64,000 nucleotides of DNA from assembly GCA_965223265.1 (NCBI GenBank), contig OZ244999.1, positions 128,001 through 192,000 of the forward strand. Direction: 5' to 3'. This document shows, piece after piece, positions 9,374-34,258 of the stretch (the first letter of the stretch is position 1; each line of letters begins with the position of its first letter). Both the position numbers and the translations under genes were made by a program. The notes below the pieces were generated by a model. The model made no database searches, had not been told where the DNA came from, and saw nothing but the letters and a program-made list of their open reading frames with translations. This DNA comes from Planctomycetota bacterium. GTDB lineage: Bacteria; Planctomycetota; UBA8108; SXIK01.

Positions 9374-9382
9374 CGTTGACGA

Positions 9383-12685: not shown

Positions 12686-12686
12686 C
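12671..12686. repeat. att core copy 1 (left junction) CTTCTCGAAGAAGTCC
   Basis: Identical to 30029-30044 and 57657-57672; encodes DFFEK on the minus strand. Confidence 0.93.
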
Positions 12687-12819
12687 TCCGGATTTTCTAA
12701 GTGACGATCTCTGGGATTCTTCAATAAGTATTCCAGCGGAGACGCCACAGAGATCTCCCAAACACAAACACACAATAGACACGCAATCGATGCGTGTTTA
12801 TGAAACTTCGGAGGAGAAG

Positions 12820-13556: not shown

Positions 13557-13710
13557 AAATCAAGTGGCAAGCACAGGCACGGACGGCAGTTGAATCTCAT
13601 GCTCGCCGCGCGCACGATCAGCCTACCGCTCGGACTTGGGATGTGGTACTTTGCGTTCCCGGGACAAGCTGATCCACGGATCAGAAGATCCATGCTCGGA
13701 GGCGTACGCT

Positions 13711-14307
13711 ATGGTGAAGAGAAAAACGCCAGCGGCGAGTACGCGAAAGTCCACTGCTCTCGAAAGGCTCCAGCCCGCAGAGTCCGAAGAGGTTCTCGGA
13801 GCCTTTCTGAAAGCGCACCCAGAACTCCGGAAAGAAGCCGAGGAGATCGCGCGTTCGCTGATCTCGGACGTGTCGTTCGACGAGGTCGCCGAAAAGGTGG
13901 AGTGGGAGCTCGAGTCGCACGATCTCGACGAGCTGAACTCCAGGGCGGGAAAGACTCGCTGGGGTTACACCGACCCCACCGACGCGGCCCACGAGATCCT
14001 TCACGAGGCGATCGATCCGATCATCGAGGAGATGAAACGGCACCTCGAGCTGGGGCTCGAGCGAGAGGCGCTCGAGATGTGCAAGGGTCTCGTGCTGGGG
14101 CGATACGGGGTTCGCGACAAGAAGAACGATGGTTGCCTCGGTTGGGCAGGCGACTTCTGCTGGCAGACCGCAGAGGAAGTCCTGGAGAAGTGGTCGAAGG
14201 GGATTCGAGGGAAGGGGAGGAACGGAAGGAGCGCCAGACTGCGTTCGTTCCTCGACGAACTCGCTCCCGAGTGGATCTCGACGTTCGAACGTGTTCTGTC
14301 GAAGTGA
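13711..14307 (+). CDS. Hypothetical helical acidic protein
   Basis: GGAGG before ATG 13711; coding-like composition. Confidence 0.7.
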   Translation: MVKRKTPAASTRKSTALERLQPAESEEVLGAFLKAHPELRKEAEEIARSLISDVSFDEVAEKVEWELESHDLDELNSRAGKTRWGYTDPTDAAHEILHEAIDPIIEEMKRHLELGLEREALEMCKGLVLGRYGVRDKKNDGCLGWAGDFCWQTAEEVLEKWSKGIRGKGRNGRSARLRSFLDELAPEWISTFERVLSK

Positions 14308-14378
14308 CGTCATGATTCGGAAGAAACCAGACCCCATCGAGCGCTCGATGGAGATTGCCCTGCGACCAGGGCGGTTCA

Positions 14379-14939
14379 TCAGATACGCGGATCCTGCTCG
14401 ACCACCACAGGAAAGCCCGTTGTTTCGGCCAGGCTCAATACACGTGCCCGGATGGCTTCGTCCTTTTCGGGCTTGCCAGGCGGATCGAGGAGCGTGTACG
14501 GAATCGAGCGAATCCAGTCGTTGTGCAGGTCGAGCACGACTTCGGGTTTGGTCTCTACGATCGCGCCGAAGATCTTCGACGCGATTCGTTCCGCCAGGGT
14601 ACCCGTCGGGTTGCCAGGAAACGATCGATTGAGATCTTCCTTGCTGAATGTCACATGCCGCGCGGCCATCTCGAAGCCGATCGGATTCATGAGCGGAAAC
14701 GCGTGCAGCGTGCCTCTCAAGAGCGGGGACTTGCGAAGCTGCTTGAAGACTTCCTGTACGACCACGATCCCGCCGACTTCGTCGCCGTGGGAGCAGGCGG
14801 TGAGCCAAACCGTCGGACCACGACGCTGGCTCCTGGCCTCCATGTACGGGATCCGCCTTGGAGACAAGTCGGAGCCGCTCAAAATCTTGAGGAGCGAATA
14901 GCGAAATCGCGTTCGGTCCTGGTCAATGCTCCGTGGCAT
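14379..14939 (-). pseudogene. Succinylglutamate desuccinylase/aspartoacylase family protein, C-terminally truncated
   Basis: TACSHGDEVGG, DLNRSFPG, VLDLHND; only 186 aa, ending at a head-on junction with another gene fragment. Confidence 0.8.
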
Positions 14940-15368
14940 GTCCGAGCGCGAGACCGCCGATCACGTCGACGGCACGATGTCGCAGCCGGAGCCACACACC
15001 GGTCCGGGGCGTCGTCTCGGCCTGCTAAGACGTCCCGCCTCTTCGCTCACTCGGGAGTCGCGTCGCCCGTCTTTGGACGACGGAGAGGCGGGACGTAGAT
15101 TCCTTTCTACCCGGCCGCTTTGGCTTTCTCCTTCCGCTTCGGCCGGCGCGGGGTCTTCTTGGCCTTGGAATCTTCCGTCGCGCTCGCCTTTTTGGGGCCT
15201 TTCTTTCGCGGCATTGAACCGTCCTCCTCAAGTAACGCCTTCAAGACTCGCTCTGAGACCATCCCAGAGCTCGTCGAGGGAGCAAGCACAGCGTGTGCCA
15301 ATGCGGCGTGCGCGATCGCGATTCTGCGTCCCTGGGCTGCGCCCCCGAAAAGTTGACGCCCGTGATGC

Positions 15369-16805
15369 TCAGTACTTGAAGTGGTTCTTGTCCAGGTCGT
15401 GCTTCTTGAGCTTGTCGAACAAGTTTCGTGTCGTCATTCCGGCGCGCTTTGCCGCCTCACCGACACGGCCACCGCTGATCCGAAGCAACTCGGCGAAGTA
15501 CTCCTTCTCGAAGGCGTCGACGACCTCGCTCTTCGCCTCGGCGAACGGTCGGGTTGCCAGCTCTGCTGCCGGTCGAGGCCCGACGGGAGCCGCGTTCACT
15601 GTCTCGCCAGAACCGGCCGTTCGCTCAGAGCCGTTCAGCCAGACAGGCAGGTCGTTCGGTTTCACGGCACTCCCTCTGGAAAGAAGCATCGAACGTTCGA
15701 CGACGTTGACGAGCTCCCTGATGTTGCCTGGCCACGCGTACTGCTCCATGGCGTGGAGTGCCGCGTCGGAGAAGTGCTGCACCTTGGTCGCCATGCGTCC
15801 CTGAAAGTAGCGCGTGTACGTGGCGACGAGCCCACGGATGTCTTCCTTGCGCTCGCTAAGTGGCGGGACCTCCAGCGTGACGACTCCGAGTCGGTAGTAG
15901 AGATCCTCCCGGAACGTCTTCGCCGTCACGAGCTCCCGTAGCTCACGGTTCGTCGCCGACATGACTCTGACGTCAATTGCGATGGAGCGTTCTGCGCCGA
16001 CTGGCGTCACCTCTCGGTCCTGAAGCACGCGCAGGAGCCGAGACTGAAGGTGGAGCGGCATTTCGCCGATTTCGTCGAGGAATACCGTTCCGCGGTGTGC
16101 GAGCTCGAACCAGCCGCGGCGTGTCGTCGTGGCTCCCGTGAAGGAACCTCGCGCGTGGCCGAAGAGCTCGCTCTCGAGGAGGCTCTCCGGAAGCGCACCG
16201 CAGTTAACCGCCACGAAAGGTCCCTTTGCTCGCGAACTCGCCTGGTGAATCGCTCGAGCCAACCGTTCCTTGCCGACGCCAGTCTCGCCGGTGATGAGGA
16301 GTGTCGAGTCGCTATCGACCACACGCTCCACGACTGACATGAACGCCTGCATCGTGGCGCTCGTCGTCACGAAGTCGCTCAGTTTCGGAGTGTCGATCTC
16401 GCGCTCGAGGAGCAACTCATCGGAACGCTCCTGACGAACCCGGGCAAGAATCCCCTCGAGCGCTTGCGACAAGAGATCGTCGTCTAGGGAAAGGTCGAGA
16501 TGAGCGACGGCACCTGCGGCGACAATCCGCGCATCGTCGTCCGAGTCCTGCTGGGCGCTCAGGACCGCGAGTCGCGGCGCGCCCGGGACGTCGCTCAACA
16601 TAGCCACACTCTGAGGGGCCGGCTTGGGAACGAGCGCACGACTTACAAGGACTATGTCACCGGCATACTGGGCGAGCCGACCCCACAGCGGTTGCTTGCT
16701 CTTTCGAATCGTTTCGACAAACGTGTCGGGCTGCGGACGAAGAAGCCCTCGCAACCGCTTTGTTGTATCGCCGTCCTCGGCACAGATGAGCACTCGTAGA
16801 AGCAT
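15369..16805 (-). CDS. Sigma54-dependent (NtrC/Fis family) activator with atypical receiver domain
   Basis: [46 protein letters not shown]-terminal HTH. Confidence 0.93.
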
Positions 16806-16955
16806 TGCAAATCGTCACTCGCGGCCTGGCAGTCCGGAAGAATTATCTCCGAAAAATCAGAAGTCGCAAGGATGTGCTCTCATCTCGCGATCGCAGCCCC
16901 GCATAACCTATTTAAAAACAGTCAATTACGGCTTTCCCCGTGACGCCGCTCGCTT

Positions 16956-16971
16956 TGGCGTACGAAGTGCT
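16956..16971 (+). promoter_or_regulatory. Putative sigma54 -24/-12 promoter of glutamine synthetase III
   Basis: TGGCGTACGAAGTGCT = GG-N10-GC; AT-rich tract upstream; divergent activator gene adjacent. Confidence 0.6.
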
Positions 16972-17006
16972 TGGGGCTCCTCCAAGTGCTGAGGAGTCTT
17001 ACGCCC

Positions 17007-19199
<2,193 letters not shown>

Positions 19200-19342
19200 G
19201 CGGCGAGGCGGTCCGCCGAAGCGGTCACGGCCTCGCTAAAAAGCGGAAGTTTACCTTCTTATAAAGCGGAGCTGCTGGGCGCCACCCCGACCAGCAAGCC
19301 ACAAGGTGTTTTATGTGAGCCAGTTACGAATCCGGATTGGTG

Positions 19343-19358
19343 TGGCGCCACGTTTGCT
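19343..19358 (+). promoter_or_regulatory. Putative sigma54 promoter of the CBS-hsp20-groESL operon
   Basis: TGGCGCCACGTTTGCT, a close match to TGGCAC-N5-TTGCW. Confidence 0.7.
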
Positions 19359-19422
19359 AAACGTTCGCACGTCGACCTTCTGTCGAGTGACGGACAGTGC
19401 CGGAAAACTATGGTACTCAGCC

Positions 19423-19536
19423 ATGACAAAGACACCCGAGCAACCCAAGCCGGAGCCTGTACCGCCGCCGACCCAGGAGGACGGTGACGAGAAGCCGAGA
19501 CCCAGGCCCGGACCACGGCCTCGTCCCGCCGGTTGA
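19423..19536 (+). CDS. Possible 37-aa Pro-rich small protein
   Basis: ATG about 65 bp after the sigma54 motif; MTKTPEQPKPEPVPPPTQEDGDEKPRPRPGPRPRPAG; no clear RBS. Confidence 0.35.
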   Translation: MTKTPEQPKPEPVPPPTQEDGDEKPRPRPGPRPRPAG

Positions 19537-19599
19537 TCGAAGAACTGAAACCTCGTCCATAGATGAGGCGATTGTAGGCAGGTCACAAGGAGGTAGCCG

Positions 19600-20076
19600 A
19601 TGAAAGTCGAGAGCGTAATGACGAAGGACCCACGCACGTGCTGTCGGACGGACACCCTGAACGTGGCAGCAAAGATCTTCTGGGAGCAAGATTGTGGGTG
19701 CGTGCCCGTGGTCGACCCAGAAGGCAGGGCGATCGGTGTGCTCACCGATCGTGACGTTTGCATCGCGGCCTACACTCAGGGCCGTCCACTGAGTGAGATC
19801 TCTGTGGAAACCGCCATGAGCCGCGAGCTCTTCGCGTGTGCCCCTGGCGACACGCTCGAGCAGGTCCAGGAGACTCTTCGAGATCGGCGAATTCGTCGGC
19901 TCCCTGTTGTCGACGACGATGGCCGGTTGGTCGGGATCGTGTCTCTCAACGACATCGCACGAGAAGCCAGCCGCCAGCGAGAAGGCCGCAAGAGGGATGT
20001 CAGCGAGCGGGAACTCGGAAGAACGCTGGCCGCTCTCTGTGAGAGTACGGGCCGCGAGCTCACGGCAGTCGCCTGA
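19600..20076 (+). CDS. CBS-pair protein
   Basis: MKVESVMT, GCVPVVD, GVLTDRD, IRRLPVVD, GIVSLND; AAGGAGG RBS. Confidence 0.92.
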   Translation: MKVESVMTKDPRTCCRTDTLNVAAKIFWEQDCGCVPVVDPEGRAIGVLTDRDVCIAAYTQGRPLSEISVETAMSRELFACAPGDTLEQVQETLRDRRIRRLPVVDDDGRLVGIVSLNDIAREASRQREGRKRDVSERELGRTLAALCESTGRELTAVA

Positions 20077-20099
20077 GCATTTCGAAAGGAGTGTTACAG

Positions 20100-20537
20100 A
20101 TGGAACTTACCCGTTGGTCACCGTTTGGTCTAGCGTCGCTTCGACGCGAGATGGACGATCTCTTCGATGCTTTCTTGGGAAGGGCGCCGAACGCCCTTTC
20201 GAACGGAGGATGGACGCCTTGGTTGGACATGGCGGAGACTCCCGAAGAACTGGTGGTGAAGGCCGAGCTCCCGGGTATCAACGAGAAGGACATCTCGGTC
20301 ACCGTCTCTGGAGGTCAGCTCGTCATCAAGGGCGAAAGAAAGGCGGAAGAAGAAACAAAGGATAAACACATCCATCGCCTCGAGCGACGATTCGGTTCGT
20401 TCGAACGGGCAGTTCTTCTGCCCGTCGCGGTGGACGAAGACAAGACCGTCGCCGAGTACAAGAACGGCGTGCTCGAGGTTCGGCTTCCAAAAACGGTGAA
20501 GGAGCGCCCGAAGCAGGTCACGGTGAAGATCAAATAG
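20100..20537 (+). CDS. Hsp20/alpha-crystallin small heat-shock protein
   Basis: AELPGI, ERRFGSFER, AEYKNGVLEV. Confidence 0.94.
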   Translation: MELTRWSPFGLASLRREMDDLFDAFLGRAPNALSNGGWTPWLDMAETPEELVVKAELPGINEKDISVTVSGGQLVIKGERKAEEETKDKHIHRLERRFGSFERAVLLPVAVDEDKTVAEYKNGVLEVRLPKTVKERPKQVTVKIK

Positions 20538-20579
20538 CGTCGGGATCTCTGTGCCCGGTGCCTGGAGGTGATTTAACAA

Positions 20580-20879
20580 ATGGCCAAACACAAGATCCAG
20601 CCGCTTTACGATCGGCTTGTCGTCAGGCGCGTCGAAGCCGAGGAGAAGACCAAGGGGGGCATCGTCCTCCCCGACAAGGCGAAGGAGAAACCGAAAGAAG
20701 GTCAGGTCATCGCGATCGGGTCGGGAAGACTTCTTGACGACGGCAGGCGAGCGGAGATGCAAGTAAAGGTCAAGGACCGCGTTCTCTTCTCGAGCTACGC
20801 AGGCACTGAGATCAAGTTGGACGGCGAAGACTTCCTCATTCTCAAGGAGGACGATGTGCTCGCCGTTGTGGAGTCGTGA
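20580..20879 (+). CDS. groES: Co-chaperonin GroES
   Basis: [27 protein letters not shown]. Confidence 0.97.
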
Positions 20880-20925
20880 CATCAGAAGAAGTGAGCGCTC
20901 CATACCGTAGGAGCGAACCATAGCC

Positions 20926-22536
20926 ATGAGCGCAAAGAAGATCGTATACGACAACGACGCCCGCGAGGCTGTCCGTGCGGGAGTCAAGAAGCTCGCCCAT
21001 GCAGTGAGGGTCACGCTGGGACCACGTGGTAGGAACGTCGTACTCAACAAGAGCTTCGGGCCCCCGAAAGTCACGAAGGACGGTGTGACCGTCGCCAAGG
21101 AGATCGACCTGCCGGATCCCCACGAGAACATGGGTGCGCAAATGGTCAAGGAGGTCGCCAAGAAGACCGGCGACGCCGCAGGCGACGGGACGACGACCGC
21201 GACGATTCTCGCCGAGGCGATCTACGAGCAAGGCCTTCGAAACGTGGCCGCGGGCGCCAGTGCCATCTCGCTTCAACGAGGTATCGACAAAGCGGCCAAG
21301 GCAGTCGTCGAGCAACTCAAGAAGCGCTCAAAGAAGATCTCTACTCACGCTGAAATCGCGCAGGTCGCCACGGTTGCATGCAACCACGACACGGAAATCG
21401 GCGAGATCATTGCCGAGGCGATCGAGAAAGTCGGGAAGGATGGCGTCGTCACGATCGAGGAAGGAAAGAGCCTCGAGACCAACGTGGAATGGGTCGAAGG
21501 CATGCAGTTCGACAAGGGCTACCTCTCACCCTATTTCATCAATGCACAAGAGAAGATGACATGTGAGCTCGAGGAACCCTACATCTTGATCCACGAGAAG
21601 AAGGTGGCGTCGGTCAAAGACATGTTGCCCCTTCTCGAGAAGATTGCCCAGAGCGGCAAGCCCGTGTTGGTGATCGCGGAAGATGTCGAGGGAGAGGCGC
21701 TCGCGACTCTCGTCGTCAATCGACTCCGCGGTTCGTTCCAGAGCTGTGCGGTCAAGGCGCCTGGCTTTGGAGACCGCCGCAAGGCCATGCTCCAAGACAT
21801 CGCGATCTTGACGGGCGGACGGGCGATCTCGGAGGATCTCGGGATCGAGCTGAAAAGCCTCGAGCTCAAGGACCTCGGACGAGCCAAGAAGGTACTGGTG
21901 GAGAAGGACTCCTGCACCATCGTCGAGGGCCAGGGCGCTAAGTCGGAGATCAAGGCACGGATCGATCAGATCCGGACGGAGATCGGGAAGTCCACCTCCG
22001 ACTACGACAAAGAGAAGCTCCAAGAGCGACTTGGAAAACTCACGGGAGGGGTCGCGAAGATCAACGTCGGCGCGGCGACTGAAATCGAGATGAAGGAGAA
22101 GAAAGACCGCGTGGACGACGCTCTCCACGCCACCCGAGCAGCCCTCGAGGAGGGAATCGTCCCCGGCGGCGGGACAGCCTACCTGAGGTGCCTCGACGTG
22201 ATCGCGAAGCTGGAGGCGACCGGCGACGAAGCCGTGGGCGCTCAGATCGTTCTCCGCGCGCTTGAGGCTCCAGTACGCCAGATCGCCGTGAATGCTGGAA
22301 TGGACGGTGCTGTCGTCTGCGAGAAAGTCAAAAACTCGACTGGGAACGTGGGCTTTGACGCGGCCACGGGCGAGTACACCGATCTCGTCGACAGGGGAAT
22401 CGTCGACCCGACGAAAGTCTGCCGCATCGCACTCGAGAACGCGGCAAGCGTCGCTGGGCTGCTTCTCACCACGGAAGCGGTGATCTGCGAGAAACAGGAC
22501 GAAAGGAAGTCGGCCAAACACTCACACGACTATTGA
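20926..22536 (+). CDS. groEL: Chaperonin GroEL paralog without GGM tail
   Basis: [40 protein letters not shown]; ends KHSHDY. Confidence 0.97.
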
Positions 22537-22572
22537 ACGGGCTCCCCCAGGAGCAATGGAAGGAAATAACCG

Positions 22573-23151
22573 GTGCCGACTGAAGGTGTATTGACAACGT
22601 CTCAGTGGGGCCTGGCACTGGCCATATTCGCACTGCGAATCATCGACGTCTCTGTCGGAACGGTTCGTACACTTGCGGTTGTCCAAGGCAAAGTGAAGGC
22701 CTCGGTGATCTTGGGATTCTTCGAGGTTCTTGTCTGGCTGGTGGCGGTTTCCCACGTTCTCGGACAGGTAACCGCGAACCCTATCCTGATGTTCGTCTAC
22801 TGCGCCGGATTCGCCGGTGGCAACGCGGTAGGAATCGTTCTCGAGAAGAAGCTCGCCCTCGGCGGCGTCGTTCTCCGAGTGATCTCTACCGCAGATCGAG
22901 ACCAGATGCTTCGATGCCTGTACGAGCAGGCGGCACGCGTCACGACGTTCGAGGGGGCGGACAGCGGAACTCCGGTGACGCTGTTCTATGTCGTCTGCCG
23001 ACGTAGAATCCTGCGCGCTCTGCTTGACCAGGCTCGCCAACTTGACCCCGAGCTCTTCTTCGCAGTCGAACCTCTGAGGGAAAGCAGTCTGGAGCTGACT
23101 CAGCCTCTCCCCCGCGCTACCGGCTGGCGATCATTACGCAAGGCGAAGTGA
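22573..23151 (+). CDS. DUF2179/DUF5698 (UPF0316-like) membrane protein
   Basis: IFALRIIDVSVGTVR, GFFEVLVW, GFAGGNAVG. Confidence 0.8.
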   Translation: MPTEGVLTTSQWGLALAIFALRIIDVSVGTVRTLAVVQGKVKASVILGFFEVLVWLVAVSHVLGQVTANPILMFVYCAGFAGGNAVGIVLEKKLALGGVVLRVISTADRDQMLRCLYEQAARVTTFEGADSGTPVTLFYVVCRRRILRALLDQARQLDPELFFAVEPLRESSLELTQPLPRATGWRSLRKAK

Positions 23152-23158
23152 CGTAGAA

Positions 23159-25129
23159 ATGAAGAAGAACCTGGAGCGCGGTCGTGAAACCAAGCCATCA
23201 GCGAAAAACGGCGGACGGACGATAGGGCCGGTTTCGGACCTCGAGCGTCATTTGCCGTCCGATTGGTGGCGGACGCTCTTCAACTCCATCTACTTGAAAA
23301 CCGATGGAGATGTGATCGAGAACACTGCGAACACGAAACGCGAAGTGGATGCCGTGATTCGAGCGGCCGGACTCGAGGTGAACGACCGGATCCTGGACCT
23401 CTGCTGCGGTCAGGGAAGACACTGCCTGGAGCTCGCCCGGCGAGGCTTCGCGCATGTTACTGGCGTGGATCGATCGCGCTACCTCATTCAACTCGCTCGG
23501 AAACGTGCGAAAGACGAAGGCCTTTCGGTAGTTTTTCGCGAGCGTGACGCTCGGAAGCTCCGCCTGCGTGAGACGCCGTTTCACTGCGTTACCCTACTTG
23601 GAAACTCCTTCGGGTATTTCGATACAGAAGACGACGATCGACGGCTGCTCGAAAGCGTCAAGAACGCTCTTCATGGTGGCGGGATCCTGGTCCTCGACAT
23701 CGCCGACGGAGAGTGGCTCAGGACGCACTTCGCGCCGCGCTCGTGGGAGTGGATCGATCAGAACCACTTCGTCTGCCGTGAGCGATCTCTGGCAGCCGAC
23801 GGGACACGCCTGATCTCGCGGGAGGTCGTCGTGCACGCCGAACGTGGCGTGATCGCAGACCAGTTCTACGCGGAGCGACTCTATCCCAAGGAACGGCTCA
23901 ACGGGCTTCTGGAGTCCGTGGGTTTCGCGGATCTGCGTGATCATGGCTTTCTCTTTCCCCAATCGGAGCGTAACCAAGATCTCGGGATGATGGCGCAGCG
24001 CTACCTGCTCACGGCACAGGCGCCGCGGATCGTTCAGACGTCAACGAGAGCGGGTCCTCGCTACACTGAAGTTGCAGTACTTCTCGGTGATCCTCGGCTT
24101 CCGGACCGCGTCAAGCGTGAGGGACAATTCAATGAGGAAGACTTCGAGACGCTCCGCAAGCTGAAGGATGCCCTCGGTGAACTCGACGAGTACAGATTCG
24201 AGTACCTGGACAATCATGCGTCTCTGATCACCCAGTTGCGCGGCTGTCGACCAGAGTTTGTCTTCAACCTCTGTGACGAGGGTTTCGACAACGACGCCTT
24301 CAAGGAACTCCACGTTCCTGCCGTACTCGAAATGCTCGACATTCCCTATAGCGGTGCCGGCCCCGCTTGTCTCGCCATCTGCTACGACAAGTCACTTGTT
24401 CGCGCGTTTGCCGAGTCGCTGGACATCCCTGTGCCGCTCGAGTCGTACTACAACGTGGATGACCACGCGGCGACCTTGCCTTCCGTATTTCCCGCGTTGG
24501 TCAAGCCCAACTACGGCGACTCGAGCATCGGGATTACGAAGGACGCGGTCGTGAGGTCTCCGGAGCAGCTCGTGGCTTACCTCGAGAAACTGCAGGACGA
24601 GCTCCCGAGCCGCTCGATCCTCATTCAGGAGTTTCTTAGCGGACCAGAGTACAGTGTAGCAGTCATCGGCAACCCGGGGAACGAGCTGACGATCCTTCCA
24701 CCGCTCGAGGTCGATTACAGCGGATTGTCCAGCGGGCTGCCGGCGATTCTCGGATACGAATCGAAGTGGATGCCGGAGTCTCCGTACTGGAGCGAGATCC
24801 GTTACCACGAGGCGCGGATCGACGAGGACGCTCGACGCCAGCTTGGCGACTACTCCCTGCGCCTTTTTGAGCGACTGGGCTGTCGGGACTACGCTCGTTT
24901 CGATTTTCGTGCCGACTCCGCTGGCGTGATCAAACTTCTTGAGGTGAACCCGAACCCCGGCTGGTGCTGGGACGGCAAGCTGAACTTCATGGCGGGCTAC
25001 GCGGGGATGCGATACTCGGAATTGCTCCGAGGCGTGCTCGAAGCGGCTCAGGAGCGGATCGCCAATGGAGCGCCTCGGCGGGAAGTCCCTTGTCAAGGCA
25101 TCCCACTCACGGCCACCAGCTGCGAGTGA
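23159..25129 (+). CDS. Class I SAM methyltransferase fused to a D-Ala-D-Ala-ligase-like ATP-grasp domain
   Basis: ILDLCCGQGRH and NSFGYF; then VFNLCD, IPYSG, LVKP..GDSSIGI, QEFLSGPE, RDYARFDFR, LEVNPNP. Confidence 0.88.
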   Translation: MKKNLERGRETKPSAKNGGRTIGPVSDLERHLPSDWWRTLFNSIYLKTDGDVIENTANTKREVDAVIRAAGLEVNDRILDLCCGQGRHCLELARRGFAHVTGVDRSRYLIQLARKRAKDEGLSVVFRERDARKLRLRETPFHCVTLLGNSFGYFDTEDDDRRLLESVKNALHGGGILVLDIADGEWLRTHFAPRSWEWIDQNHFVCRERSLAADGTRLISREVVVHAERGVIADQFYAERLYPKERLNGLLESVGFADLRDHGFLFPQSERNQDLGMMAQRYLLTAQAPRIVQTSTRAGPRYTEVAVLLGDPRLPDRVKREGQFNEEDFETLRKLKDALGELDEYRFEYLDNHASLITQLRGCRPEFVFNLCDEGFDNDAFKELHVPAVLEMLDIPYSGAGPACLAICYDKSLVRAFAESLDIPVPLESYYNVDDHAATLPSVFPALVKPNYGDSSIGITKDAVVRSPEQLVAYLEKLQDELPSRSILIQEFLSGPEYSVAVIGNPGNELTILPPLEVDYSGLSSGLPAILGYESKWMPESPYWSEIRYHEARIDEDARRQLGDYSLRLFERLGCRDYARFDFRADSAGVIKLLEVNPNPGWCWDGKLNFMAGYAGMRYSELLRGVLEAAQERIANGAPRREVPCQGIPLTATSCE

Positions 25130-25136
25130 GTGTCAG

Positions 25137-27473
25137 GTGAAAACGCGTCGCACGACGAACATCCCGCACGCGCTTTCGGAGATTCTGACGAGCACGACGT
25201 CGCTCGCGCAGATTCTCGAGGCAACGGTAGGTATCGTGGCGGAGCAACTTCGCGCCGACGTGTGCTCGATCTATCTTTTGGACCTCTTCAGTGGCCGACT
25301 TCGCCTGGTCGCCTCCAGAGGTTTCAAGGAGGGGGCCCTCGGTCGAGTCTCCCTGGGACCCGACGAAGGCATCACGGGCACTGTCGTCTCCACAATGTCC
25401 TCGATCGCTTCCGAGGACGCCAAGGAGCATCCCTCCTACCGTTACTTTCCGGCCACCGGAGAGGAGGAGTTCTCCGCCTACCTCGGGGCTCCATTGAGCG
25501 TGGGAAGGCGACCCGTCGGAGCGATTGTGCTGAGGAACCGGGAGCGGCGAAGCTACACCGAGTACCAGAAGAAGACGCTTCAGACGGTAGCGGCGCAGTT
25601 GGTCGGAGTCATCGAAAACGCACGACTCGTCGAGGCGCTCGATCAGCCCGATGGCGGGAGAGCCTACTTTGAGGAGCTGCACAAGTGGAACCGCGGTCTT
25701 CGCGAGTATCGCCCGACTCAGGATGGGCACGGGGAGGTGATTCTACGCGGAACCGCTGGTTCCCATGGAGTGGCCATCGGAAAGGCTGTCGTGCGGGGAT
25801 CATCGGATCCCACCTCCGAGCTCCACATGTCACCCGAATCTGCTGAAGAGGAACGACAACGCCTCGGGGTTGCGATTGAAAGAACTGGCAGTGACCTCGC
25901 TCACATCCATGCTGCAGCCGAACGTGAAACCGGCGAAGAGCACGCGCTTATCTTCTCTGCGCATCTCCTTATCTTGAGTGATCCCACGCTGCGAGGACGA
26001 ATCGAGGCCTTGATCGACGACGGGCTGTCTGCCACGCAGGCAGCGCACCGAGTGTTTGCCGACGTCGAGGCGCAACTGCGTGGTCTCGGAGACCCCTATC
26101 TCAAGGAGCGGGCTGAGGACATCCTCGATCTGCGTGCGAGGCTTTTGGGACATCTGACCGACCCGGCGACGAGGACTCAGGATTTGAGCGACCGGATCGT
26201 CGCTGCGGAGCGGCTTTCGCCTTCGATGATCATTGAACTCCGCGCCGAGGGAGTGCTCGGAGTTGCGACCGAACGCGGTGGAGACACCTCGCACGGGGCG
26301 CTCCTGGCTCGCGCCATGGGAGTGCCGGCCGTCACGGCCGTTCCTGAGTTGATGCGGAACGTTCTTCCCGGAGACGATCTCATTCTCGATGGCTCCACCG
26401 GCACTGTGATTGTAAGGCCGCAGCCGGAGACGTTGAGCAAGTATCAGGAGAAAGCACGGCGGTGCGTCGCGTCGGCTGAAAGGCTCGCAGGCATTTCGCA
26501 GAGTCCGGCCCAATCACTCGACGGCCGCAGCGTGAAGTTACTTGCAAACGTAGGGTTGGCCGCAGAAATCGACGAAGTAGCCGGGCGAGGCGCCCAAGGG
26601 ATCGGACTCTATCGGACCGAGTTCCTCTTCCTGGGACGGACCGACCACCCGACCTCGGAAGAGCAGACTCGCGTCTACCGTGCCGCCTGTGATTGCGTGC
26701 CCGACGGTCCGATCTACTTTCGTCTCCTCGACGTCGGAGGGGATAAGTGGTACGCCCGGTTGACGTTAGCAGGAGAGGCGAACCCTGCGCTCGGCTACCG
26801 ATCGGTTCGACTGCTGCTTGACGCGCCATGCGTCTTCAAGGAGCAGGTAGAAGCCGTCCTTAGAGCCGCTGGGGAACGCGAGGTCGGGATCATCGTCCCC
26901 CTCGTTACGGACCTCGAAGAGGCTCGTAGGGCGAAGACCCTCATTCGCGAGGTACACGATTATCTCTCTGAGTCCGAAGCGGACCCCGTAACTATGCCGC
27001 GAATCGGCATCATGATCGAAGTGCCGGCGGCGGCCGAGATCGCTTCGCACCTGGCAGAGGAGGCCGACTTCTTGTCGCTGGGAACGAACGACCTCGTCCA
27101 GTTTACACTCGCCGCGGACCGGGAGAACGCTCGAGTGGCGCACCGTGGTACTCCCTTCCATCCTGGCGTTCTGAGCTTGGTCCGCCGGACGATCGACGCC
27201 GGACGATCCGTTGGGAAGCCAGTCGGGTGTTGCGGCGAGCTGGCCGCGGTTCCCGAACTTGCGATCTTGCTTCTCGCCATGGGCGTCGACTACCTGAGTC
27301 TCGCTCCAGTGTCGATCCCCAGAGTCAAGCTGGCTATTCAGCACAACGACATCGGAAAGCTCGAAGCCCGCCTGGATGAGATATTGGCGCTGCCCGAGGC
27401 GTCACTCGTGGAGAACATGCTACGTGAGGCGGTGGTCAAGCCGAGATGGAAGGAGGGCCGTCGCCTGGAGTGA
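25137..27473 (+). CDS. ptsP: GAF-domain PEP-protein phosphotransferase (Enzyme I-Ntr-like)
   Basis: N-terminal GAF (ADVCSIYL), GGDTSHGALLAR, GIGLYRTEF, MIEVP, GTNDL, CGE; GTG start inferred. Confidence 0.88.
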   Translation: MKTRRTTNIPHALSEILTSTTSLAQILEATVGIVAEQLRADVCSIYLLDLFSGRLRLVASRGFKEGALGRVSLGPDEGITGTVVSTMSSIASEDAKEHPSYRYFPATGEEEFSAYLGAPLSVGRRPVGAIVLRNRERRSYTEYQKKTLQTVAAQLVGVIENARLVEALDQPDGGRAYFEELHKWNRGLREYRPTQDGHGEVILRGTAGSHGVAIGKAVVRGSSDPTSELHMSPESAEEERQRLGVAIERTGSDLAHIHAAAERETGEEHALIFSAHLLILSDPTLRGRIEALIDDGLSATQAAHRVFADVEAQLRGLGDPYLKERAEDILDLRARLLGHLTDPATRTQDLSDRIVAAERLSPSMIIELRAEGVLGVATERGGDTSHGALLARAMGVPAVTAVPELMRNVLPGDDLILDGSTGTVIVRPQPETLSKYQEKARRCVASAERLAGISQSPAQSLDGRSVKLLANVGLAAEIDEVAGRGAQGIGLYRTEFLFLGRTDHPTSEEQTRVYRAACDCVPDGPIYFRLLDVGGDKWYARLTLAGEANPALGYRSVRLLLDAPCVFKEQVEAVLRAAGEREVGIIVPLVTDLEEARRAKTLIREVHDYLSESEADPVTMPRIGIMIEVPAAAEIASHLAEEADFLSLGTNDLVQFTLAADRENARVAHRGTPFHPGVLSLVRRTIDAGRSVGKPVGCCGELAAVPELAILLLAMGVDYLSLAPVSIPRVKLAIQHNDIGKLEARLDEILALPEASLVENMLREAVVKPRWKEGRRLE

Positions 27474-27568
27474 CTCCCTATTCGGTGTGGAACTCCCGAA
27501 CTCCATTTAACGGCCTCCGTCGGCCTCCGTGAAGCGAGTTCTCTATGAGGAGGAAGTTTGGGGGTCAG

Positions 27569-29086
27569 TCATTCTTCACTCGTCCTCATCCTCTCCTCGT
27601 CTTCCATATCTACAGCTTCAGCAGCAAGCGTGACGAGGTCATCGCCGCTGAGTTCGTGCTCCGTAGAACGTTGGGTTCTGCGGAAGCGAAAGCCACGATA
27701 CAGACCGACCGGAAAGCGTAGCACTCGTAGCGGGGTGGCGCCAATGAGTTGCGTCATGACGTGGGGCGTCCCGTGCGCCTCTGGTTCCTGAATCCGCAAC
27801 GCGTAGACCACGCTGATCAACCGCAAGGCGAGGCTGGTAGCGAAGAGAAGCTCGAAGTTTCCAACCGTGGCCGTTCCGAGTTGCACCTGCCAGGAAGCGG
27901 TGGCTACGAGCGCCGCTCCCGCCAGAATCGAGGCAACTCCGCCGACCATGCCTGCCAGGGCGGTTCCGGCGGCGATGTACATCGTGCGGTTTACTGAAGG
28001 AGATTTCTTCAACATAAATCCATTCGAGGCAATGGCAATGCCCGCGTTGAGCCCAGAGTCGACAAGAAAGACGAGAGCGAGCAAACAGAAGGCGAATTCA
28101 AGATTCGAGGGGAGAAAGAGCAACGCGATCATGTTTGTCGACTTGAGTGAGGTACAGAGAACCAGGACGGGACGATTGCCGTACTTTTCGGCCGCTCGTC
28201 CGAGAGGGACTGCAACCAGTGCGCCGCCGGCCCAGCAGAACGTCCATAGCAACAGTAGGTGGAAGAGACTCAGACCGACCTCGGACAAGAGGTACAAACT
28301 GATGAACGGTGCTCCGATCATCGCAGCGAAGTTCCAGAAACACGCGTACGAGATGAACGTGCGAAAGCCGGACTCTTTGAACGGAGCGCTGAACACACGT
28401 ATCAAGCTTGGCTCTGGTACGGGCTGAACCGTTGGCTCCTCGATTTTGAGGAAAAAGAGGAGGTCTCCGACACCGAAGATCGCACCGACCCCGATCAGAA
28501 CGGCAAAGGCTGTGTGAGTATCGACTCCACTCTTGTGGACGAAAAACGCGCCTGCCAAGAGAGACAGCGCCCCCGCCCACTGCATCCACCGCTGTCGTAC
28601 TCCCCAGTAACTATTGAGTCCTGCGTGAGGAAGGTAATCCCCCATCCAGGAGAGCCAGAGCGGGGAGCCGAAGTGGAGAAGAGCATGGTTTACCGCAGTG
28701 GTGGCGACGAGCAACAACAACCAGGTCGCGTGTACCACGTCCGGGAACAAGAGCGGTCCAAGAGCGGCCGGCACGAGAATCAACCGCTGTACGATTGACA
28801 CGGCCAACCAGAGGGGACGACGGTACCGTAGGTGGTTGGCGACAACCGCGGCGACGAACTGCATGAACACCATTGCCGTGGGCAGAGCGCCAAGGAGGCC
28901 GATGTGGAAGGCGCTGGCATCCAGGGAACGGGCGAATTCTATGGTGGCCGGCGACATCGTCAGCTGTGTGTAAACCATCGACATGCAGCCGGCGATAATG
29001 ATGGCCCGTTTCGCAGTAGGAAGTGACCACATGATGGCACGTTCTCTCCAGGCAACCCTGCTCTTTGGCAATCCCAGGCGGAGCAT
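27569..29086 (-). CDS. MFS transporter
   Basis: About 12 hydrophobic segments, WLSWMGDY, GRAAEKYGNRP. Confidence 0.85.
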   Translation of the reverse strand: MLRLGLPKSRVAWRERAIMWSLPTAKRAIIIAGCMSMVYTQLTMSPATIEFARSLDASAFHIGLLGALPTAMVFMQFVAAVVANHLRYRRPLWLAVSIVQRLILVPAALGPLLFPDVVHATWLLLLVATTAVNHALLHFGSPLWLSWMGDYLPHAGLNSYWGVRQRWMQWAGALSLLAGAFFVHKSGVDTHTAFAVLIGVGAIFGVGDLLFFLKIEEPTVQPVPEPSLIRVFSAPFKESGFRTFISYACFWNFAAMIGAPFISLYLLSEVGLSLFHLLLLWTFCWAGGALVAVPLGRAAEKYGNRPVLVLCTSLKSTNMIALLFLPSNLEFAFCLLALVFLVDSGLNAGIAIASNGFMLKKSPSVNRTMYIAAGTALAGMVGGVASILAGAALVATASWQVQLGTATVGNFELLFATSLALRLISVVYALRIQEPEAHGTPHVMTQLIGATPLRVLRFPVGLYRGFRFRRTQRSTEHELSGDDLVTLAAEAVDMEDEERMRTSEE

Positions 29087-29295
29087 AGAATACGTCCCGC
29101 CGCTTCGAGCGGCCAGTCTTTCGTTTCATCGGGTATTCCGGGGTTCTTGATGAGATGAGGGCCTCGATCTCCGTCCCCACCGCCCAGTGGATTTGTGCCG
29201 AAGGCTCAGAGACAATTGGAAGGTGTCAGTGCGCGTGCGGTCGCTCACGTGGCTGGACGTGCCCACGAGAAGGAGTGGTAGTCGACAGATTCTAA

Positions 29296-29665
29296 ATGAA
29301 CACTGAGCAAGAAGATCTCAACCGGTTTCATATCGCTCGGCAGCAGTTGGATCGCGCCGTCCAGTTCCTTCCGGACTTCAAGAAAGGACTGATCGATTTC
29401 CTGAAGTCGCCGGCGCGCAGTATCACTCTCTGCTTTCCCGTCGAGATGGACGACGGATTCGGTGCAGACCTTTACGGGGTATCGCGTCCTTCACAGCCGG
29501 ATCCGTGGACCGGGAAAAGGAGGCATCCGGTATCACCCTGACGTCAGCGCGGACGAAGTGCGCGCTCTGGCGAGTTGGATGACGTGGAAATGTGCGCTCG
29601 TCGACGTTCCGTTCGGTGGTGCAAAGGGCGGTGTTGTCCGTGACCCGAAGGAGCTCAGCGAGACG
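29296..29665 (+). pseudogene. Glu/Leu/Phe/Val (glutamate) dehydrogenase 5' fragment, frameshifted and truncated
   Basis: FPVEMDDG / frameshift at ~29457 / [44 protein letters not shown]; homology stops just before the element end. Confidence 0.88.
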
Positions 29666-29736
29666 TCGAGATCCACGCCCGACCGGTTGCTCCGACTTCT
29701 CCCACCACCTCCTCACTCCGAACGCCATATCGAAAG

Positions 29737-30044
29737 AGAAACCGCGGGTAATCGCCGGTTTCTGATCTGGAGCTCCAGCGTCCGTGAAAAACGCGTTTCA
29801 GATCGAAAGGTGCCAGGATGCTAGAGACGTTTTTACTAACGCGAGGCCGAGAGGACCGAGATCGAGATTCTGAATCTCACCCGTTGATCTGTCTGCCGAA
29901 TCTGAAGACAGTGCCTTTGTCAACTGCCGCGGCGGAAACGAAAAGGTATCGACTTCTCCCAGAAGGTGATCCCTCGATCCGTAACTCCGCGTATCCCGCG
30001 GAGAAAGGATCCGTCAGAAAGGTATCGACTTCTCGAAGAAGTCC
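29737..30044. repeat. Conserved right end of element A, homologous to 57388-57672
   Basis: Shared in order: AGAAACCG..AATCGCCGGT, TGAAA(A/C)ACG(C/T)GTTTCA, ATCTCACCCGTTGATCT, and two AAAGGTATCGACTTCTC copies 76 bp apart. Confidence 0.9.
30029..30044. repeat. att core copy 2 (junction of elements A and B, attP-like)
   Basis: GACTT-CTCGAAG-AAGTC inverted repeat around a 7-bp spacer; element right-end sequence on one side, left-end sequence on the other. Confidence 0.92.
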
Positions 30045-30183
30045 ACCTCGTTTTGTACGTGACGATCTTTCGGAGAGTTAGATAGATCGGAGAGAGGAGA
30101 AGTTGTCCCCTCGAGTACAGAAAACAGCGGACAAAGTTTCGCTTTGAGGACAACCAAAGCGGACAAACAGAGGAGAACCAAGA

Positions 30184-31191
30184 ATGAAGAAGTCACCGAA
30201 GGCATTTCAGAAGAGCGATGGAAACTGGTATTGCCATTACAACGGCAAGCAGCACTACCTCGGCAAGAACCCCGACGAGAAGATTCGGAAGCTTGTCGCC
30301 GCGGACAACGTCAAGACCAGCAAGCTGACGATCAGCGACGTATCCACGCAGTACCTTGCCTGGATCGAGCCGACCCAATCGCCAGATTCGATCGACGGCA
30401 AACGACGAGCGTATCGACGGCTCGTCAACGACCTCGGCGACATTCCGATCCAGGATCTCACGCTCGAAAAACTCGAGGAATACCGAAACTCCCTGCTCAA
30501 GCAGGTGAAGAAGTCGACCGTACGGACGACGTTCATCAAGCTCAGCGCGCTCCTTCAGTTCTGTGCGGACCGCAAGATACTGCCTGACAACCCGTGCCGG
30601 AAGATGCGGAAACTGAAAGTGCCGGAGGACGCCCAGCCGGACGTGCTCACCGAGGAGGAGGTCTTGACGCTTCTCGACCTTTGCTCATCGAAACCGAAAT
30701 CGACGATAGTTCAGGAACGCGATCGCATGATCTTCCTGCTGATGCTCCACTGCGGACTCCGAAGGATCGAGGTGAGCAACCTCAGGTGGAGTGACGTCGA
30801 TCTCGAGCGGCGGCTCCTCGTCGTGCGCAATGGCAAAGGAGGGAAGGACCGTCTCGTGGCGTTGAACGACACGATGCACGATGCGCTGAGCAACCACGAA
30901 CGCCTCAACGACGAGTTCGTCTTGACCACGCGAGATGGCGATCAGCTCTCGCGCACGATGATGAACCGGATCACGGTGAAGTACCTCGACGATCTTGACC
31001 ATCACTACCGGGGCAAGAAACGGTTGTCGCTGCACGCACTTAGGGCGACCTTCGCTACGAGGCTCTGCGAGAAGGGCGTCTCGACGCGAGTCGTCCAAGG
31101 ACTTCTCGGCCACTCTGATCCGAGAGTGACGATGCGTTACGCCGCCGTCACCGAGGCCGCTTGTTTGGACGCGGTCAGGAAGATCGGGTAA
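30184..31191 (+). CDS. Tyrosine recombinase/integrase
   Basis: Catalytic set R (GLRRIE), K (GKGGK), HALR, LGH, Y (TMRY); GAGGAG RBS. Confidence 0.96.
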   Translation: MKKSPKAFQKSDGNWYCHYNGKQHYLGKNPDEKIRKLVAADNVKTSKLTISDVSTQYLAWIEPTQSPDSIDGKRRAYRRLVNDLGDIPIQDLTLEKLEEYRNSLLKQVKKSTVRTTFIKLSALLQFCADRKILPDNPCRKMRKLKVPEDAQPDVLTEEEVLTLLDLCSSKPKSTIVQERDRMIFLLMLHCGLRRIEVSNLRWSDVDLERRLLVVRNGKGGKDRLVALNDTMHDALSNHERLNDEFVLTTRDGDQLSRTMMNRITVKYLDDLDHHYRGKKRLSLHALRATFATRLCEKGVSTRVVQGLLGHSDPRVTMRYAAVTEAACLDAVRKIG

Positions 31192-31579
31192 CAGATCCGG
31201 CGATACGGCGGCAGGGGGAAGCGACTCTACGTGTGGTCACATCGCAGGTGCCGGCGTTCATCTACCGTGAAGCTTCCCGAAATGATAAGGACATTCCTGG
31301 TGTCAGCTGGCTCGTCCAGCCTCCCCACGTCGTTAACCCATCACCATCGTGCTGGACCCGCCAGTTAATAATCTCCCTCCAAATGTGAGTTTTCGTGACA
31401 GATTCTGGCGCTCCGCCACTCCACGCATGCATACGACAGTACGCAGCGCAGACGACTAAAGGCACGCAGCCGAAACCGCCGCCCAGCTTATCAGCCTGAG
31501 TGTCACTGAGTTCGCATGGGAGTAGCTGTCCCGATCGCGCACCGCCAACAGTGTAGGCGACTCGCTTCCCGGGCAGCTC

Positions 31580-33895
31580 ATGAATCGCGAGATGCAAGAT
31601 CACCTCGAGGATACAGTTGGGCGGGACCTTCCGAAGGATTCTCCCCGTGCCTTCGGAATCGAGTCGCTCTTGCGGAACGTCCTCTCGTACCTGACCGGAA
31701 CACCTCGGAAGTCAGTAGTGCTGCTCGGTCGTTCTGGAGTTGGCAAAACCGCCCTGGTACACGAACTGGCGACCGTGCCCAAGTTGCGAGTTCGCCGCGT
31801 CTCGGCGCAGGATATCATGGAAGGTACGTCGTACCTGGGGGAATGGGAGACGAAAGTTCGTAAGCTGGTAAACCAGGCTTCAGCGACAAAGGGAATCCTC
31901 GTCTATGTTCCCCGTCTTGATGAGCTGATGCACGCCGGCAAATGCAGCAAGTCGGACAGGAACGTCCTCGCAGCCCTTGCGCCCCACATCGAGGACGGTT
32001 CTATCGTCCTCCTTGGCGAGACGACCCCTGAGGCTTTCAGGGCGGGGATCGGAGGTGATGCCTCCTTGAGCAGTCTCTTCAAGGTGGTCAAGCTGGAGCC
32101 CGCTTCCCTTCGAACGTCAAGTGCCATCGTGCGTCGCGTTGCGGTCGACGAAGGCGTACGCATGCCCCCGTCGCTATGCGATCGTTTGGTCAACTTGAGC
32201 GATCTATACGGAGCGAACACTGTACAGCCAGGAAAAGCGGTCCACGTGTTGCGCGAAGCGCTCCGTCTGGCATCTGGCCAAGGAGCACTCACCCTCCGTG
32301 ATATCTTGGAAGCTCTCTCAAGAAAATCTGGAATCCCCATTGATCTCCTCGACGACGACATCCCCATCGACGTCGGCGACGTACGGCGCTTCTTCGAATC
32401 CAGGGTGATGGGACAGGGGAAAGCTACCTGCGCGGTAACGGATCTCGTCGTCAGAGTGAAAGCAGGCGTCACGGAACCGGCAAGACCCCTCGGCGTATTC
32501 TTTTTCGCCGGTCCGAGTGGCGTTGGCAAGACTGAGCTCGCCAAGGCGATCGCCAACTTCATGTTCGGCGACGCCAGCCGCCTTGTGCGGCTGGATATGA
32601 GCGAGTATCAGGGGTTCGACGCCGTTGATCGTATGATCGGCGGAGTGGGAAGAGCAGGCCGCCTCACGTCAGCGATCTTGGAAAAGCCCTTCTCGGTCGT
32701 TCTTCTCGATGAGATCGAGAAGGCTCACGGAGGTGTCTTTGACCTGTTCCTTCAAGTCTTCGATGCCGGTCGGTTGACTGACGGACAAGGAAGAACCGTC
32801 GATTTTGGTCACACGATCTTCATTCTGACTTCGAACGCCGGCGGCACGATCCGGATTCAAGACCAGGTGCCGATCGGTTTTGCTACGAAAGGGAAAGCCG
32901 ACACCTGTTTGGAGAGCGAGCTGTGGGAGGAGCTCGAGAAAACCTTCCGGCGCGAGTTTCTCAATCGGCTCGATGAGATCATCTCCTTCGAACCGCTCGG
33001 CCGAGACGTTGTGGAGAAGATCGCCCAACAAGAAGTACAAGCATTTCTCAATCGACCTGGGATTCGTCAGCGGAATCTTGATGTGCGCGTGCAGTCGGAT
33101 GTGGTCTCCTTCGTCGCTCGCGAAGGCTATTCGCGCATCCTCGGCGCACGCGCGCTGAAGCGTACGGTCGAGAAGGTCCTTCATCCTGTCACGATCGCAA
33201 TCGCTGAGAAGAGAATCCGGAAAGGTGGTGGCATCACCGCTTCGGTCCAGGAGGGACGAGTTGTCATTGCGGTCGATTCGGACCGGACTCCTGAAGTGGA
33301 ACCCGAGTCCGTACCGGATCAGTGTGCGATCGAACCGAAGCGGCAGAATCCGGACAACAGCGAAGATCCGCGCTCTGACGGTAACGGTTCGGCGTACTGC
33401 TGGAAGATACGTTTCGTCCTCGAGACGGACGAGGGTGGCAGGAAAAGACGTTGGTATCAACCCGCTCTCTACGTTATCGATTCCGACACCCGTGGAGTAC
33501 CGCGCTATCGTTTTGTGCGACCCCTAGGTCCCGAATGCGACGACGCAGAGACGGCCGCGGACATCGGTTCAACGAAAACCAACGTCCGGCGTGATGACCG
33601 AGCTCGCAACGGCGGCATCGCCTTGCGCGTCAGCGATGTCCTTTCGCCTTCGGAGGCGTCCAGCTGGCGACTCGGTCACGCCAAGTACGCGATCTTCAAC
33701 GCGAAGTCTTCGGCAAGAGATCGCTGGAAGGTGGCAGTCGGTAAACTCACCAAGAGGAGAGGGCGCGATCTCTGGGTCGTACACCGGTATCTTGGCACCT
33801 TCTCCCGGAAGCAGACGACAGAAATAAACACCGTCGAGTTTCCGGTTAGACGCGTTAGCAAGCTTCCTCGAAAGGAAGGAAAAGTAATCCAGTGA
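31580..33895 (+). CDS. ClpA/ClpC-like double AAA+ ATPase lacking the N-domain, with an unknown C-terminal extension
   Basis: GRSGVGKT, GTSYLGEWE, RVMGQ, GPSGVGKT, RLDMSEY, LLDEIEKAH, GRLTD, PIGF, EFLNRLD, GARALKR. Confidence 0.88.
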   Translation: MNREMQDHLEDTVGRDLPKDSPRAFGIESLLRNVLSYLTGTPRKSVVLLGRSGVGKTALVHELATVPKLRVRRVSAQDIMEGTSYLGEWETKVRKLVNQASATKGILVYVPRLDELMHAGKCSKSDRNVLAALAPHIEDGSIVLLGETTPEAFRAGIGGDASLSSLFKVVKLEPASLRTSSAIVRRVAVDEGVRMPPSLCDRLVNLSDLYGANTVQPGKAVHVLREALRLASGQGALTLRDILEALSRKSGIPIDLLDDDIPIDVGDVRRFFESRVMGQGKATCAVTDLVVRVKAGVTEPARPLGVFFFAGPSGVGKTELAKAIANFMFGDASRLVRLDMSEYQGFDAVDRMIGGVGRAGRLTSAILEKPFSVVLLDEIEKAHGGVFDLFLQVFDAGRLTDGQGRTVDFGHTIFILTSNAGGTIRIQDQVPIGFATKGKADTCLESELWEELEKTFRREFLNRLDEIISFEPLGRDVVEKIAQQEVQAFLNRPGIRQRNLDVRVQSDVVSFVAREGYSRILGARALKRTVEKVLHPVTIAIAEKRIRKGGGITASVQEGRVVIAVDSDRTPEVEPESVPDQCAIEPKRQNPDNSEDPRSDGNGSAYCWKIRFVLETDEGGRKRRWYQPALYVIDSDTRGVPRYRFVRPLGPECDDAETAADIGSTKTNVRRDDRARNGGIALRVSDVLSPSEASSWRLGHAKYAIFNAKSSARDRWKVAVGKLTKRRGRDLWVVHRYLGTFSRKQTTEINTVEFPVRRVSKLPRKEGKVIQ

Positions 33896-33931: not shown

Positions 33932-34258
33932 TTGCGGACTACGATCTATGAAGCGCTGAACTGCACCCGCCTCAGCGAGGAGTTCGTCGTCACGGGCCGG
34001 GCCGGCAATCAGCTCGCTCGCTCGTCGATGACCAGGATCACGGCGAAGTACCTCGACGACCTCGATCACCACTACAAGGGCAGGAAGCGGCTGTCGCTCC
34101 ATTCTCTGAGAGCAACCTTCGCCACACAGCTCTGCGAGAACGGAGTTTCGACGAGGGTCATCCAGGGACTGCTCGGCCACTCGGACCCGCGGACGACGAT
34201 GAGGTATGCAGCGGTCACGGAAGCCGCTTGTCTCGAGGCCGTTCGGAAGATCGGCTGA
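33932..34258 (+). pseudogene. C-terminal fragment of a related tyrosine integrase
   Basis: KYLDDLDHHYKGRKRLSLHSLRATFAT..LLGHSDPRTTMRYAAVTEAACLEAVRKIG, nearly identical to the C-terminus of 30184-31191. Confidence 0.92.

Follow-up and report, generated by a model that had tools for sequence, protein, structure and literature searches.

A duplicated, mismatched core in the right arm of planctomycete islands inserted in PSCyt1 genes: a candidate accessory integrase site

The right ends of two tandem islands in the genome of a Planctomycetota bacterium (here G000) carry a second copy of the junction core with a different spacer, and the question is what this inner copy does. The window analysed is a single stretch of 64,000 nucleotides (G000:C1:128001-192000). 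The original prediction, made from its letters, was that a 17-mer occurs in two pairs; the copies (29942, 30018, 57570 and 57646) are present exactly, 76 bp apart in both places, no further copy was found in the 64-kb window with up to three mismatches allowed, and shuffles of the window gave an expectation of 0.10 copies, none of them reaching four. The letters also confirm the junction as GACTT-CTCGAAG-AAGTC, an inverted repeat around 7 bp, and its palindrome reaches into the spacer (GACTTCT-3-AGAAGTC). The two places, called A and B, had been taken for the two ends of one element; both do carry conserved copies, but they are the right ends of two elements in tandem.

Genes of the DUF1549/DUF1553/PSCyt1 and DUF1501 families were recognised in the window, a content suggestive of a planctomycete-type host, and one PSCyt1 gene is interrupted at the DFFEK codons. 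Its 3′ part (9383-12685, minus strand; PF07635, PF07583 and PF07587; translation DFFEKKIRPVL..CYECH) begins at DFFEK and is called as an open reading frame up to 12913, since it continues in frame into the left end of element A; its 5′ part, displaced to 57667-57770 (minus strand), consists in translation of a start codon and a signal-peptide-like stretch and ends at DFFEK. Between them lie element A (approximately 12685-30043), with an attL-like left core (12671-12685, plus strand) and a truncated integrase (12849-13556, plus strand; 62% by tblastn to residues 5-103 of P0001), and element B (30043-57671), which has an intact tyrosine integrase of 335 amino acids (P0001, 30184-31191, plus strand, PF00589) starting 140 bp past junction A. 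The left end of element B has a 9-mer with TCCGC in two copies (30127-30167), which are candidate arm-type sites. The target's CTTCGAG, reverse-complemented, is identical to the junction spacer, and this would give an overlap within the 6–8 bp of lambda-type att sites, and the DFFEK codons themselves form a near dyad. Among 19 PSCyt1-like motif matches in G000 (two of them occupied sites and two that look spurious) this spacer is CTTCGAG in nine and CTTCGAA in four. Judged from these sequences, the islands are inserted by a lambda-type tyrosine integrase at the DFFEK codons of PSCyt1/DUF1553 genes, and they apparently form an undescribed family whose target is a motif common to a family of paralogues; the literature searched holds no description of it, although catalogues in supplements could list such islands. 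No tRNA was found by a scan of the window.

G000 has four more arms of this kind, three (C, D and F) clustered within 22 kb and separated by cargo and one (E) on the minus strand, as well as further left ends. The cluster (G000:C1:4234480-4257000) consists of a left end, three arm-core-Y-arm junctions (F, C, D), solo arm fragments and intervening cargo genes; no family integrase lies near it, an intact target paralogue is found at 4228048-4230549, and the array looks like stacked non-autonomous cassettes. A complete non-autonomous element of 1.5 kb with both ends inside a PSCyt1 gene occurs in another genome (L090 2365-3890, G041 C124), with an intact PSCyt1 paralogue at 8016-11147 of the same locus, and at L019 and L091 a tandem junction is followed by an integrase reduced by deletion to two short pieces. 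Similar N-terminal sequences in genes near the G038 and element E junctions (L089 6338-9374 and G000 5903096-5906165) suggest that these two have cargo in common. Within the window, a fragment of a Glu/Leu/Phe/Val dehydrogenase gene (29462-29824) is cut off just upstream of arm A, a ClpA/ClpB-like ATPase that scores under every curated cutoff lies directly 3′ of the integrase (31580-33895), and a 16-bp palindrome from the upstream part of the arm recurs at 29786, 34287, 35887 and 57437, standing alone inside element B, in one case just past an integrase C-terminal fragment (33932-34258).

Inspection of the right arm showed the inner copy to be a whole two-armed dyad. In element A (plus strand) an upstream part with two small dyads and a conserved box (29736-29909), homologous to the region upstream of a target-gene subfamily, precedes a left arm, L1 (29942-29955), that is a direct repeat of the junction arm, a 7-bp spacer, S1 (29956-29962), variable at positions 2-3, and a right arm, R1 (29963-29974), that had not been recognised before. 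R1 is an inverted core-type half-site whose start is 69 bp away from where the junction arm ends and which matches the reverse complement of that arm at 9 of 12 bases. A stem-loop follows (29976-30011; outer GATCC/GGATC stem, central dyad 29985-30003 with a 5-bp centre) and then the junction core shared by the two elements (30018-30043, plus strand; L2 30018-30031, spacer 30032-30038, start of R2 30039-30043). The right arm of element B has the same order on the plus strand (57506-57602, with the box at 57506, L1 57570-57583, S1 57584-57590 and R1 57591-57602), followed by its central dyad (57613-57631) and its attR-like right junction core (57646-57671, plus strand). The stem-loop is as first described, with one stem mismatch in B (C.A on the plus strand, G.T on the minus) and one loop change there in addition. 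The inner spacer is indeed CTCCCAG and reads FWEK on the minus strand, but this is probably the wrong direction of reading, since S1 is nearer to CTTCGAG than to the junction spacer CTCGAAG in 5 of the 11 full arms described below, equally distant in 6 and never farther, so that the inner site is best taken to run opposite to the junction; translated forward it gives KGIDFSQKVIP, which resembles the target's GRIDFFEKKIRP.

The integrases make up a small family, with 31 of 120 matches lying above a clear gap in the scores. Residues R193, K218, H284, R287 and H310 are invariant and Y319 is kept in at least 90% of 30 family proteins; these we take to be the R-K-H-R-H-Y catalytic set of tyrosine integrases. 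In a structural model of P0001 (mean pLDDT 84.8) a three-strand sheet (7-9, 15-19, 22-27) and a helix (30-39) precede the core-binding and catalytic domains, and the top Foldseek match of the model is full-length lambda Int (E 1.7e-12 over 346 columns), so P0001 has at its N-terminus a predicted domain of lambda type for binding arm sites. P0001 was rejected as an integron integrase (TIGR02249, 83.3 bits against a cutoff of 265, the match falling in two stretches) and as XerC or XerD (scores under both cutoffs). It gave no match as lone query against the genome contigs, and only G000 among 401 genomes of the phylum at E 1e-40. Viral contigs yielded only distant integrases and no junction pattern, and plasmid and phage collections no match. 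In one subtype (12849-13556, P0004 and P0026) the N-terminus is extended by a further domain of about 120 amino acids with no Pfam match, presumably HNH-like to judge from its motif. A recurrent palindrome centred on GACGTC lies near family integrases and arms (L015, L016 past the integrase stop, L091 at about 2960) and is possibly a regulator site. At L016, about 9620 (G035 C158), a family integrase adjoins a Ser/Thr kinase gene that is cut just before its AMQF motif, which suggests that relatives target another expanded gene family.

Of the 11 full arms that were aligned, G000 supplied six, G041 one, L019 one and metagenome loci three, and with six from a single genome the conservation, 81% identity by column, is partly kinship. 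The inner site can be aligned in all 11, two of which are degenerate (F and G041, with L1 matching L2 at 7/14 and 8/14), and in three arms L1 equals L2 at 14/14. Pairwise identity is 0.82 for the inner 10 bp of L1 (0.92 without the degenerate F), 0.80 for R1, 0.90 for L2 and 0.97 for the junction spacer, against 0.37 for positions 2-3 of S1 and 0.56 for the linker after R1; with one arm per source the corresponding values are 0.87, 0.77, 0.91, 0.95, 0.30 and 0.63. The inner spacer takes eight forms and the junction spacer two. R1 lies at 67-70 bp in every arm and is the top inverted match to the core arm in nine (67-69 bp), and all 11 arms join foreign DNA at the outer core. The inner copy is absent from three other junction-like sites (L054, the G038 junction in L003, and a decayed site at about 4243240 in the genome); a metagenome scan with a pattern for the junction only found it in three of four loci, the fourth, L054, having only about 25 bp of arm. 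Arms were found only in near relatives (3 of 59 genomes of the class, G000 included). The junction 17-mer with one mismatch allowed matched 28 of the 401 phylum genomes, but of the 30 loci examined none outside G000 had the inner copy or homology to the arm (L116 is the G038 junction), and these matches are therefore treated as chance. Contigs from four runs of one study covered most of 11600-31500 in pieces, none of them spanning it, and no excision joint between cores was seen among 15 of 75 contig joints, a count that is uninformative on excision because contigs drop rare variants. A TCCGC motif is present in the right arms, the left arms, the Y arms and the neighbourhood of the G035 integrases, although it was chosen post hoc and is found in 36% of random 130-nt windows.

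A more distant relative, G035, has three family integrases (44–48% identity to P0001) and related arm modules with a different core, one module scoring 87 against the G-type end at junction E (G_E; shuffle maximum 31.5). For each G035 arm we took its own 12-bp core arm, with the crossover point inferred from where the left ends join foreign DNA, and sought its best inverted match within 24-160 bp upstream. This fell at 69-70 bp in four of five arms, compared with 7.5% for random positions; as three of the four are one sequence type this amounts to two lineages of three, for which p is about 0.02 as estimated from the 7.5% null. None of the five arms has the L1 direct repeat at 76 bp or the central hairpin, and one lacks R1 as well. 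The inner copy and hairpin had been expected to persist in more distant relatives; the direct repeat and hairpin are missing from G035 and the inverted half-site is kept, so that this expectation half fails, and the family-wide feature is an inverted half-site at a fixed distance rather than a direct repeat.

The reading that we favour, with moderate confidence, is that the inner copy is an uncut accessory site for the element's own integrase, set at a fixed helical phase and descended from an old junction at the 5′ end of a target gene. The accessory integrase site of the original prediction gains support from four features of the alignments, namely that the arms are conserved, the centre of the spacer is free, the distance is fixed and the half-site follows the different core of G035. 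Strand exchange would take place at the junction core, and further integrase subunits would bind the core-type arms of the inner site, chiefly the inverted R1, which would be held 69-70 bp, or about 6.5 turns, from the junction arm. We read the central CTCCGCG-N5-CGCGRAG dyad as a double-stranded protein site, for an arm-type or bending protein, rather than a folded structure. The same form of dyad, altered in a way that keeps the symmetry, is found some 280 bp upstream of the integrase at L016 in G035, where the pattern has only two sites, although its frequency in other GC-rich genomes makes this recurrence modest evidence. Together the inner site and dyad may shape the synaptic complex and bias its direction, as DR1 and DR2 do for TnpI, while the mismatched inner spacer would stop the inner site from completing an exchange. 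It counts against an accessory site of core type that lambda-type integrases are described, in the available portion of PMC2817482, with accessory sites of arm type and not with extra core-type ones.

Where the arm came from is indicated by its homology to target genes. In local alignments against the upstream part of arm D, L054 scores 88, a target paralogue (1371800) 54.5 and G_E 48, with shuffle maxima of 33-35; 3 of 11 target-side or G-type sequences score clearly above shuffles, and the displaced 5′ part of the target beside B does not. A global alignment of the arm with the target 5′ end has a deletion over the signal peptide, with uncertain edges. What we call G-type ends (one beside junction E, one in L057 and one in protein P0122) still have the signal peptide, together with a version of the inner segment that is 75 bp long and in frame, identical to arm A at 61 of 84 positions and one base shorter; two such DNAs differ by five synonymous and six non-synonymous codons, where the remaining forward frames give 1/9 and 2/7. 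At G038 the junction looks like an inner site bearing the target's true spacer (77% over 56 nt), and among 38 candidates for a full-length gene with a 25-residue insert there is one protein, a weak case that ends at FFEK. We infer the order old junction, in-frame G-type end, non-coding right arm: the arm would derive from a target-gene 5′ end with an in-frame 75-bp piece between two cores, the signal peptide being deleted later and one base gained in the right-arm lineage. On the other side of the island, the left ends LA, LB, LE and that of G041 (window 12686-12913 and 30044-30210, both minus strand; G000 5906618-5906770; G041 C124 2365-2632) have a frame open into the target DFFEK, and three have a hydrophobic peptide in common. 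LA and the G041 left end differ by 9 synonymous and 18 non-synonymous codon changes (8 and 9 synonymous in two other frames; a weak codon signal), and it is possible that left ends supply replacement N-termini to the target.

The same homology could mean that the inner copy is a neutral fossil, left over from a former junction of a target 5′ end with an earlier element end and preserved only through the close kinship of the arms. Homology to the 5′ regions of target genes extends along the arm up to the RIDF codons, the forward reading of the inner site is target-like, the site has decayed in 2 of 11 arms and is missing at the three junction-like sites, and arms are found only in near relatives; we nevertheless consider a fossil unlikely, because the arms of the site hold their sequence where the intervening and flanking bases drift, L1 and L2 are identical in three arms, and in G035 a half-site matching a different core stands at the same distance. 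It is very unlikely, in our view, that the inner copy is an alternative crossover site, serving paralogues whose spacer differs or insertion in inverted orientation. Here the G-type ends (G_E, L057 and P0122), in which a signal peptide is joined at the inner site, speak in favour, as does the degenerate site near 4243240, where the inner position is the point at which the upstream arm meets a 5′ remnant that looks like the target, although deletion between direct repeats explains that site equally well; IntDOT, moreover, recombines mismatched overlaps (PMC2817482, in the same portion). The suggestion that other paralogues supply the matching spacer turned out to be weak: neither FWEK nor FSQK is read in any of the 19 PSCyt1-like motif matches (13 have CTTCGAG or CTTCGAA), so an FWEK paralogue was rejected for G000, and the variety of the inner spacer and the joining of every full arm to foreign DNA at its outer core argue the same way.

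Two further readings turn on the fold of the arm. That it encodes a small structured RNA carrying a target-like sequence is barely credible to us. The central 7-bp stem is paired in 86.7% of cases on the plus strand and 98.7% on the minus, it has a probability of at least 0.9 in 8 of 11 arms when folded with DNA parameters, folding z-scores are low in several arms, and upstream lies a promoter-like box that we take to be of target-gene origin; but low z-scores follow from the binding-site dyads themselves, no Rfam family matched the window at the gathering score, and 29600-30300 has no terminator-like or sigma-70-like site. Covariation in the aligned arms did not exceed that of shuffles on either strand (0.049 versus 0.057 on one, 0.074 versus 0.074 on the minus), and the outer stem, paired across arms at 70% (plus) and 65% (minus), is probable (at least 0.5) in only 2 of 11, so the stem-loop as a conserved structure was rejected. 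The other reading is a single-strand site of the kind represented by CTXphi attP and integron attC, in which the minus strand folds back to pair the inner and junction sites with a mismatched overlap, and one exchange is completed by replication. This fits with the inverted orientation of the two sites, with an RNAalifold consensus of -24.3 kcal/mol for the minus strand compared with -10.7 for the plus, the minus fold being one long hairpin that is also the DNA minimum-energy fold of A (z -4.3) and B (z -3.5), with the preference of the central stem for the minus strand, with the existence of tandem arrays with regenerated cores and with the geometry of the two inverted site pairs of CTXphi, as far as the accessible text of PMC3442271 describes it. 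If it were true, integration into any DFFEK paralogue would need only one strand exchange, and a lambda-type integrase would be recombining a folded single strand, an independent origin of the CTXphi/attC strategy that was made out of captured target-gene sequence and feeds integron-like arrays of 5–27-kb cassettes. We think it quite unlikely: any two inverted binding sites can pair on paper, R1 pairs with L2 at a probability of at least 0.5 on the minus strand in only 3 of 11 arms, covariation is at the level of shuffles, the spacing is fixed, the integrase falls far below the integron cutoff, no relaxase or Rep family that might provide a single strand was recognised among the 72 window ORFs scanned, and the G035 arms, with neither L1 nor the central hairpin, could not take the same form.

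The accessory site that we favour would be a variation on known helper sites, since accessory recombinase sites as such are already known. In the parts of the sources available, the internal resolution site of TnpI/Tn4430 has, beside its IR1-IR2 core, the motifs DR1 and DR2 (PMC2847244), and the Tn4651-type rst site has IRa/IRb beside IR1/IR2 (PMC7157771); in both, extra core-type motifs near the crossover remain uncut. The islands are like the TnpI site in having extra copies of the core motif next to the core (L1 direct, R1 inverted), but those are resolution sites inside Tn3-family transposons and this is an element end (no Tn3 transposase family was recognised among the window ORFs scanned), the extra copy here is a full dyad with a 7-bp spacer, apparently descended from the target gene, and the enzyme, unlike TnpI, has a lambda-like N-terminal domain. 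With lambda-type att sites they have in common the catalytic residues, the domain layout and an odd overlap of about 7 bp between inverted core arms; in contrast to those, whose accessory sites are arm-type as far as the portion of PMC2817482 goes, the arm here repeats a dyad of core type, and what is targeted is a motif common to a paralogue family. Two inverted site pairs able to fold back on one strand and tandem arrays recall CTXphi attP1/attP2 (PMC3442271, accessible text), but in that IMEX host XerCD acts at dif and here the element has its own integrase and a PSCyt1 gene as target. Integron attI1 has two direct repeats beside its core (excerpt of PMC4792948), whereas the likeness to attC ends with the conservation of sequence rather than structure and an enzyme that is not an integron integrase. 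Finally, dusA-associated islands (PMC4482086, sections available) also insert in the 5′ part of a protein gene and offer it a new 5′ end, as the left ends that read in frame into DFFEK would do here, but in a different target gene, which here is a multi-copy family. The inner site most likely works like the accessory motifs of TnpI, though the islands are not a TnpI system, an integron or an IMEX.

Known accessory recombinase sites rarely show how they arose. In these islands the target 5′ end, an in-frame intermediate and the completed arm can all still be read, so how an accessory site may be born of an old junction would be open to direct study, and the substrate is small and testable, with one integrase of 335 amino acids, an arm of about 110 bp and a coding motif common to a family of paralogues.
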